The notes beneath the pieces are model-generated. The model worked only from the letters and a program-made list of their open reading frames with translations, ran no database searches and was not told the DNA's origin. From Mycobacterium phage phiT45-1, in sequence record MW570842.1: 43,407 nucleotides of DNA; one strand, 5' to 3'. The position numbers were made by a program, and so were the translations under genes. Of this stretch, positions 27,815-28,222 are shown piece after piece. Position 1 is the stretch's first letter. Every line of letters starts with the position of its first letter.

Positions 27815-27832
27815 GGCGAATATGAATAGCGG

Positions 27833-28222
27833 CTAGGTGATCCTGATTCGACGGTTGTTGCAGGTCAGATACTTCTCCGACCGCAAACCGTGACGCTTTG
27901 CCGATTGGCGCAAGCCCGATCTACTAGATTCATACTCGTGAGTAAGAACTGTATTGCTCACCCCCTCGGGAGTTAGCTGACCACCCCACATCAGCCAATC
28001 GCGGTCAACCCCAAGCGCCTCGGCAATCTGCCGAACCTTCACATCAATGCGGCGGGCAGCGCGGCCAAGCTCCATCCCCTGCCATTCGGCAAACGTGAGT
28101 CCAGACAGCTCCGCAGCTGCACGCTGCGACAACTTGCGCTCCTGACGCACAAGCACAAGCCGGTTAGACAGCGAATCCGTTGGCACCGAGCCCGCGCGTG
28201 GCAATTCCGTCATAGCAGTCAT
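27833..28222 (-). CDS. immunity repressor, XRE-family HTH (129 aa)
   Basis: HTH LSQRAAAELSGLTFAEWQGMELG. Divergent from the Cro-like gene and directly upstream of int. The 3' third has atypical low-GC codons. Confidence 0.65.
   Translation of the reverse strand: MTAMTELPRAGSVPTDSLSNRLVLVRQERKLSQRAAAELSGLTFAEWQGMELGRAARRIDVKVRQIAEALGVDRDWLMWGGQLTPEGVSNTVLTHEYESSRSGLRQSAKRHGLRSEKYLTCNNRRIRIT

Follow-up and report, generated by a model that had tools for sequence, protein, structure and literature searches.

The window analysed here is the whole stretch of 43,407 nucleotides from Mycobacterium phage phiT45-1 (MW570842.1). The region of interest within it comprises a repressor gene with an attachment core in its 3′ end, an integrase gene and a divergent helix-turn-helix gene, with the following features (positions are those of the window).

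26900..27814, minus strand: tyrosine integrase (int) of 304 aa without an N-terminal arm-binding domain (Pfam, solved-structure relatives)
27815..27832: spacer of 18 nt from the repressor stop to the int start, containing GAATATGAAT (sequence reading)
27833..28222, minus strand: viral (attP) form of the immunity repressor (rep), an XRE-type helix-turn-helix protein of 129 aa plus stop (ORF list, Pfam)
27836..27931, minus strand: extension specific to the viral form, codons 98-129, which stays at attR beside int after integration
27929..27948: imperfect inverted repeat TTCATACTC-GT-GAGTAAGAA with 9-nt arms, 8/9 complementary (sequence reading)
27933..27950: attP common core, TACTCGTGAGTAAGAACT on the plus strand and AGTTCTTACTCACGAGTA in repressor orientation, repressor codons 92-97 (four-site alignment)
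27935..28222, minus strand: codons 1-96 of the repressor, retained in the prophage, with ...TVLTHE as the C-terminus and the stop formed at attL
28229..28258, minus strand: candidate repressor promoter TTGCAA-18-TATGAT, sigma-70-like (promoter scan)
28245-28256: candidate operator, a perfect 12-bp palindrome GCAACGCGTTGC that overlaps the candidate promoter (single occurrence)
28348..28548, plus strand: small divergent helix-turn-helix gene, 66 aa, in a Cro-like position (ORF list; 66-aa call in identical contigs)

An earlier note on this DNA had described an XRE-type repressor followed after 18 bp by an integrase gene on the same strand, and this layout was borne out by the ORF coordinates and by Pfam. 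Since the TAG stop codon of the repressor occupies positions 27833-27835 and the ATG of the integrase positions 27812-27814 on the same strand, the gap between the two genes is exactly 18 nt (27815-27832). Repressor residues 19-78 matched Pfam HTH_31 (E 3.8e-6; 27.5 bits versus a cut-off of 27), and also HTH_19 and HTH_3. The DNA flanking the divergent 66-aa gene was nearly identical to the surroundings of gene 2 of prophiGD36-2, which is annotated as 'helix-turn-helix DNA binding protein'. With rep on the minus strand, int downstream of it on the same strand and the helix-turn-helix gene diverging on the plus strand, the region has the layout of the integration-dependent immunity family. A promoter scan of the spacer between rep and the cro-like gene returned one site, compared to 0.2 expected. 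This promoter and the palindrome overlapping it each correspond to a single consensus match and are regarded as candidates only. As a repeated operator, GCAACGCGTTGC was rejected, the window holding one copy and near-matches (at most 2 mismatches) not being enriched (4 found versus 4.6 expected). The early rightward operon contains an antirepressor-type gene (29485-30258, plus strand) with Bro-N and KilAC/ANT domains, some 1.2 kb rightward of the repressor. Just downstream of int (24859-26471, minus strand) there are two ORFs of 98 and 437 aa, the product of the latter being tagged on identical contigs with the Pfam domain NLPC_P60. Both are located at the position of the WXG-100/polymorphic-toxin cassettes that adjoin attR in M. 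abscessus prophages (PMC8092301).

To delimit the attachment core, attP from the window was aligned with attL and attR sites taken from assemblies of M. abscessus with 99.95-100% identity to the window, and with attB sites from eight other Mycobacteroides/Mycobacterium genomes. In repressor orientation, the four sites read as follows.

attP (window): ...gagcaatac-AGTTCTTACTCACGAGTA-tgaatctag...
attL: ...gagcaatac-AGTTCTTACTCACGAGTA-agaactgta...
attR: ...gccgaacg-AGTTCTTACTCACGAGTA-tgaatctag...
attB: ...ctgaccg-AGTTCTTACTCACGAGTA-agaactgta...

The 18-bp AGTTCTTACTCACGAGTA is the only sequence common to attP, attL, attR and the empty attB. In BLAST comparisons, the attR loci were 100% identical to the window down to position 27950, where homology stops, while the attL locus L028 was 99.95% identical in a gapped alignment that extended to 27922, with identity dropping past the core edge at 27933. 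The attR arrangement, in which host genes lie directly upstream of the exact integrase, was displayed by most of the many M. abscessus assemblies encoding this integrase, and an identical 18-bp core was present at both ends of the prophiGD53-3 record. Apart from one letter that differs in the text of the table, the core is attB-13 of M. abscessus as listed in Table S1 of PMC8092301, which locates the site at the 'extreme 5' end of Mab_3947'. The earlier note had suggested that attP might lie inside the repressor gene's 3′ end, where the core at 27933-27950 (within codons 92-97) indeed lies. The host match that it proposed to search for was likewise found, in attL, attR and attB; the exact match is 18 bp long and not 30-45 bp as had been expected.

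When species-representative genomes were scanned with the 20-mer TTCTTACTCACGAGTAAGAA, nine hits were obtained. Eight of these, from M. chelonae, M. franklinii and further Mycobacteroides/Mycobacterium genomes, represent empty attB sites, because the host flanks are contiguous on both sides; the ninth is the attL of another prophage. The M. abscessus species representative was absent from the nine hits, though M. abscessus attL sites contain the 20-mer, and this could reflect masking, a strain SNP or a feature of the collection. For M. abscessus, the empty site is therefore based on the reconstruction from attL and attR together with Table S1 (PMC8092301).

The consequence of integration for the repressor was read from the attL loci. 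At loci L028 and L030-L032, the sequence ...CACGAGTA is followed by A, giving TAA. A TAA stop codon is thus created directly after codon 96, because the end of the core (GAG TA) meets the first host base A. In exact-sequence look-ups, the 96-aa repressor (P0040) was recorded on 27 contigs including a 5.2-Mb chromosome, and the contigs bearing it show the attL arrangement; the 129-aa repressor (P0041) was recorded on 19 contigs, which are mostly short. All complete C-termini within the 90% cluster of the repressor end either in ...LTHE (one variant ...LTRE) or in ...RIRIT, the two other members being contig-truncated partials. At the attR loci, codons 98-129 of the extension adjoin host DNA. 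The truncation of the repressor ORF in the prophage, for which the earlier note had suggested inspecting sequenced lysogens, was thus observed as a stop after codon 96 and as a 96-aa protein on 27 contigs.

The interpretation of this region in terms of integration-dependent immunity, as put forward in the earlier note, is supported, and we consider it very probable that the region represents a cassette for integration-dependent immunity in a temperate phage of Mycobacterium (Mycobacteroides) abscessus. In the free phage, the cassette specifies the 129-aa repressor and then, on the same strand, the arm-less tyrosine integrase. Int would recombine the core at 27933-27950 with the identical 18 bp at the palindromic attB-13. 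The sequences show directly that the repressor ORF ends after codon 96 at attL once integration has taken place, and that the last 32 codons and int come to lie ∼43 kb away at attR, cut off from the candidate repressor promoter. By analogy with BPs, we infer that the 129-aa form is inactive or short-lived through its C-terminal extension, and that lysogeny and immunity are maintained by the 96-aa form as the stable repressor. The destabilising signal would be of a kind other than ssrA-like -AA, a different conserved C-terminal motif being the candidate.

BPs (gp33/gp32, cluster G) is the experimentally dissected prototype of such a switch, and its attP lies in the repressor ORF as it does in the window (PMC4557955). 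The full-length BPs repressor is inactive and degraded via its C-terminal tag, whereas the truncated form is active (Villanueva et al. 2015, PMC4557955). In both BPs and the window, rep and int are transcribed together with a cro-like gene diverging from them, and the number of C-terminal residues lost on integration is ∼33 (from 136 to 103 in BPs and from 129 to 96 in the window; PMC4557955). The two systems differ in that the C-terminal signal of BPs is an ssrA-like tag (PMC4557955), while the window repressor is without -AA. In addition, the BPs proteins are only distantly related to those of the window. In the comparison with the phage collection, the integrase was ∼30% identical to integrases of many M. 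smegmatis phages, which are presumably cluster-G-like.

No ssrA-like -AA tag is present at the C-terminus of the repressor (...NNRRIRIT), and the integrase (...TDGTVT) does not end in -AA either, a non-ssrA signal not being recognisable by sequence. Since neither protein ends in -AA, the instability of the viral form is something we infer. The MabC/N/O/H clusters are likewise without ssrA-like tags, and other signals have been supposed for them (PMC8092301). The ssrA-like tag is typical of the integration-dependent immunity family, but it is not universal. What the extension does contain is the motif HG[LF]RSxKxLTCN, which reads HGLRSEKYLTCN in the window repressor. This motif is kept in four repressor lineages, namely those of the window, phiGD57-1 (MabC), prophiGD53-3 (MabN) and prophi91-3 (MabO), whose DNA-binding domains share only about 20-50% identity. 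The motif contains at least one synonymous change, and its retention across the lineages despite this change suggests that it is under selection as a peptide. The pattern also suggests that the C-terminal module belongs to the integration cassette and not to the immunity determinant.

The explanation that survives best beside an integration-dependent switch is a conventional one with an incidental attachment site, where both repressor forms would repress equally and the extension would be neutral read-through. Such neutrality would be compatible with the lack of an ssrA-like tag on the repressor and on Int, with the middle of the extension, which is variable between the lineages, and with BPs, where DNA binding by both repressor forms is similar (PMC4557955). 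It would not account for a motif kept, despite synonymous change, in four lineages with such dissimilar DNA-binding domains, nor for the recurrence of the same architecture in six prophage clusters of M. abscessus and in four phage clusters of M. smegmatis (PMC8092301, PMC4557955), and we regard it as improbable. Also within the extension there is a 21-nt block (27857-27877; AAGTATCTGACCTGCAACAAC on the minus strand) that is invariant in the window, prophi91-3 and prophiGD53-3, although the int-region DNA of the window and prophiGD53-3 is only ∼76% identical. In phiGD57-1, 14 of the 21 nt are kept. In addition to the peptide motif, the block may thus constitute a signal at the level of the DNA.

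By megablast, the int-rep region matched only two phage records, both from M. abscessus prophages, which were prophi91-3 (91%) and prophiGD53-3 (76%). In both records the depositor-annotated immunity repressor is split over the two record ends, and the depositor's note 'attP within the immunity repressor' is attached to these two as well as to prophiGD36-2. The closest relatives of the backbone belong to cluster MabH, where positions 1-22000 of the window showed 97.7% nucleotide identity to prophiGD36-2 and 95.7% to prophiGD05-2; similarity of the right half, with the early genes, to these prophages was patchy (93-95% over ∼40%). prophiGD36-2 and prophiGD05-2 also use integration-dependent immunity, and repressor residues 1-86 of the window are 79% identical to the N-terminal domain of the annotated prophiGD36-2 immunity repressor. 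[quoted passage not shown] Because the relatives of the backbone and those of the int-rep region differ, the window is a mosaic of a MabH-type backbone and a MabN/MabO-type rep(3′)-attP-int cassette. This site and core in combination with a MabH-type backbone and the window's repressor were not present in the phage collection searched.

Two M. abscessus prophages of other clusters, prophiGD53-3 (MabN; MW584183) and phiGD57-1 (MabC; MW314852), have the same 18-bp core and attB-13 as the window. They also share with it the rep-int order, the stop codon formed by the first host base and the C-terminal module, without ssrA-like tags. In contrast, they are of another immunity type (<50% identity in the DNA-binding part of the repressor) and the rest of their genomes belongs to another cluster; identity to the window is ∼76% for the int-region DNA of prophiGD53-3 and 69% for the Int protein of phiGD57-1. 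Integration-dependent immunity has been described at attB-13 (Dedrick et al. 2021, PMC8092301), and for the sister prophages, the site, the core and the way in which the stop codon arises have already been published. The clusters with this type of immunity comprise those of the BPs/Brujita/Charlie type and, in M. abscessus, MabB/C/H/K/N/O (PMC8092301).

The earlier note had been drawn to the repressor 3′ end by its base composition. The string AATACAGTTCTTACTCACGAGTATGAATCTAGTAGA that it quoted is present on the minus strand (27955-27920), and the GC content of the last 40 repressor codons is indeed low, at 0.50 versus 0.647 for the whole window (z = -2.9), with only 0.44% of all 120-nt segments being as low. 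The extent of the anomaly, given as the last ∼40 codons, had been overstated: AT-rich codons are restricted to about 13 codons (∼89-101; 27920-27958), and the GC3 of codons 98-129 (0.656) is at the same level as that of codons 1-91 (0.648). For the repressor as a whole, GC3 is below that of int (0.747). A host-derived core, which had been offered as the explanation of the composition, accounts for half of the ∼36-nt AT-rich patch, while the other half is phage-specific flank and forms an inverted half-site. Since there are five other 120-nt dips to a GC of 0.50 or less in the window, the dip alone is not diagnostic. These dips of similar depth, and the foreign rep/int cassette in a MabH backbone, could be taken to mean that the low-GC patch is a mosaic junction or an AT-rich regulatory stretch such as an int promoter, and that attP lies elsewhere, for example downstream of int as in lambda-like phages. 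This reading is refuted by the attL and attR junctions of the 99.95-100% identical assemblies, which break at 27933-27950, and neither a tRNA nor another att candidate was found in the window; its probability is negligible.

The host gene concerned is MAB_3947, which encodes a short-chain dehydrogenase (adh_short) of 295 aa. The core overlaps the GTG start codon of this gene, and the 295-aa ORF begins at the GTG in the core both in the lysogens and in the empty sites (5 of 5 checked). After integration, the start codon of the dehydrogenase gene is kept, whereas the DNA upstream of it is that of the phage. A TANNNT hexamer is located 7-8 nt upstream of the GTG, reading TACAGT in the host, TAGATT in the phage arm of the window and TACGGT in prophiGD53-3. 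The recurrence of the hexamer is a hint that the phage provides the dehydrogenase gene with a replacement promoter. In BPs, attB overlaps a tRNA gene. A core formed by the 3′ end of a tRNA gene of the host, which is the usual pattern for BPs, Brujita and most other mycobacteriophages with tyrosine integrases, could be expected from the 10 out of 15 M. abscessus tyrosine-integrase attB sites that overlap tRNA genes (PMC8092301), but a tRNA-derived core was rejected with near certainty, as ARAGORN detected no tRNA in the window and the core of the empty site overlaps the start of a protein gene, in agreement with Table S1 (PMC8092301).

At the empty attB loci (L019, L020 and L022-L027), the host site corresponding to window positions 27929-27952 is a perfect palindrome, AGTTCTTACTC-AC-GAGTAAGAACT. 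The invariance of its inner 20 nt is so by construction, because those 20 nt were the search pattern. Its arms thus form a perfect 11-2-11 palindrome, as opposed to the imperfect 9-nt arms of attP. By analogy with integrases of the Brujita/Xer type, the inverted repeat at 27929..27948 is presumed to consist of core-type Int half-sites flanking the crossover. In the integrase itself, Pfam recognised a SAM-like core-binding domain from residue 12 and the Phage_integrase catalytic domain at residues 130-263. The best solved relative is 'Gp33' of PDB entry 5vfz (E 8e-25; residues 21-279 aligned), which we take to be the Brujita integrase, and XerC/XerD come next. As the alignments with 5vfz, XerC and XerD all begin near residue 21, the integrase has no space for an arm-binding N-domain. 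The inverted half-sites would fit a simple Cre/Xer-like recombinase that binds two half-sites. The likeness to the Brujita integrase lies in the lack of an arm-binding N-domain and may extend to the small inverted half-sites, the differences lie in the low sequence identity and in the att site used. Lunt and Hatfull are said to have described in 2016 that the Brujita integrase acts with a 6-base overlap and without directionality.

One further half-site match was detected in the spacer between rep and int. There, GAATATGAAT (27818-27827) matches the right half-site, 100 nt away, in inverted orientation at 9/10 positions, and it is the only other half-site match in the window at 1 mismatch or less. 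The copy is kept in prophi91-3 and at locus L012, and carries a 2-nt deletion in prophiGD53-3. Because it is kept in prophi91-3 and not in prophiGD53-3, its meaning as an accessory site is uncertain.

The closest integrase in the phage collection was that of prophi91-3 / prophiGD91-3 (MabO, attB-14; MW584187), with 96% amino acid and 91% nucleotide identity. This prophage shares the sequence of the right arm and of the C-terminal module with the window, and its attP is annotated inside the repressor. It differs in its core, CTTACTCCAGAGTA, in which the central bases are CA and not AC, and in its host site, which is intergenic between MAB_4442c and 4443. In addition, a 304-aa integrase that is 100% identical to that of the window was found at a second host site, of the attB-14 type (locus L012, 9865-10000; CP034191.1). 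The core at this locus is also CTTACTCCAGAGTA, with central CA versus AC, and it is followed by a different right arm of 38 bp, after which the match to the window (99.6%) sets in again at 27894. Since an identical integrase is used at an attB-14-type site, it seems to be the attP core region and not the Int protein that determines the choice of site. A more far-reaching reading, to which we would subscribe only tentatively and which we consider somewhat unlikely as a whole, is that the extension with HG[LF]RSxKxLTCN is a conserved module travelling with attP and int that would function either as a degron of non-ssrA type or as an inhibitory peptide, that the cassette would be retargeted between attB-13 and attB-14 without a change in Int via the attP core region (central AC to CA), and that it may provide a surrogate promoter for the dehydrogenase gene.

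For an immunity marker, or for a lytic therapeutic derivative for M. abscessus, it is the 96-aa prophage form and not the 129-aa ORF that should be used or deleted, a point made in PMC8092301. The exact core and site also define a target for integration vectors in M. abscessus, with M. chelonae, M. franklinii and further Mycobacteroides offering the empty site as well. Furthermore, the window adds a case of a rep(3′)-attP-int unit moving as a cassette between phage backbones, and it belongs to one family of integration-dependent switches without ssrA-like tags, in which the destabilising signal, if any, would be elsewhere than in -AA.

The attP-form, with an intact 129-aa repressor followed by int, was also encountered in lysogen assemblies. 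It was present beside attR in GCA_002800625.1 (loci L005 and L011) and on a single contig, NEGV01000008.1 (L041 and L014). Another instance (L016/L034) was on QXAH01000033.1, which at 53.5 kb exceeds the window (43.4 kb) in length and departs from it over the first 805 nt of the stretch compared. An 822-kb contig with the intact 129-aa ORF ends 9 nt beyond the repressor stop. These occurrences suggest that the cultures contained phage DNA in an excised or replicating state, or that prophages were arranged in tandem, and the 822-kb contig fits both equally. Lastly, a 66-aa fragment of the truncated repressor (P0046) was recorded on a 704-bp contig with the NCBI label Salmonella enterica; this contig most likely represents M. 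abscessus contamination of a Salmonella enterica assembly.
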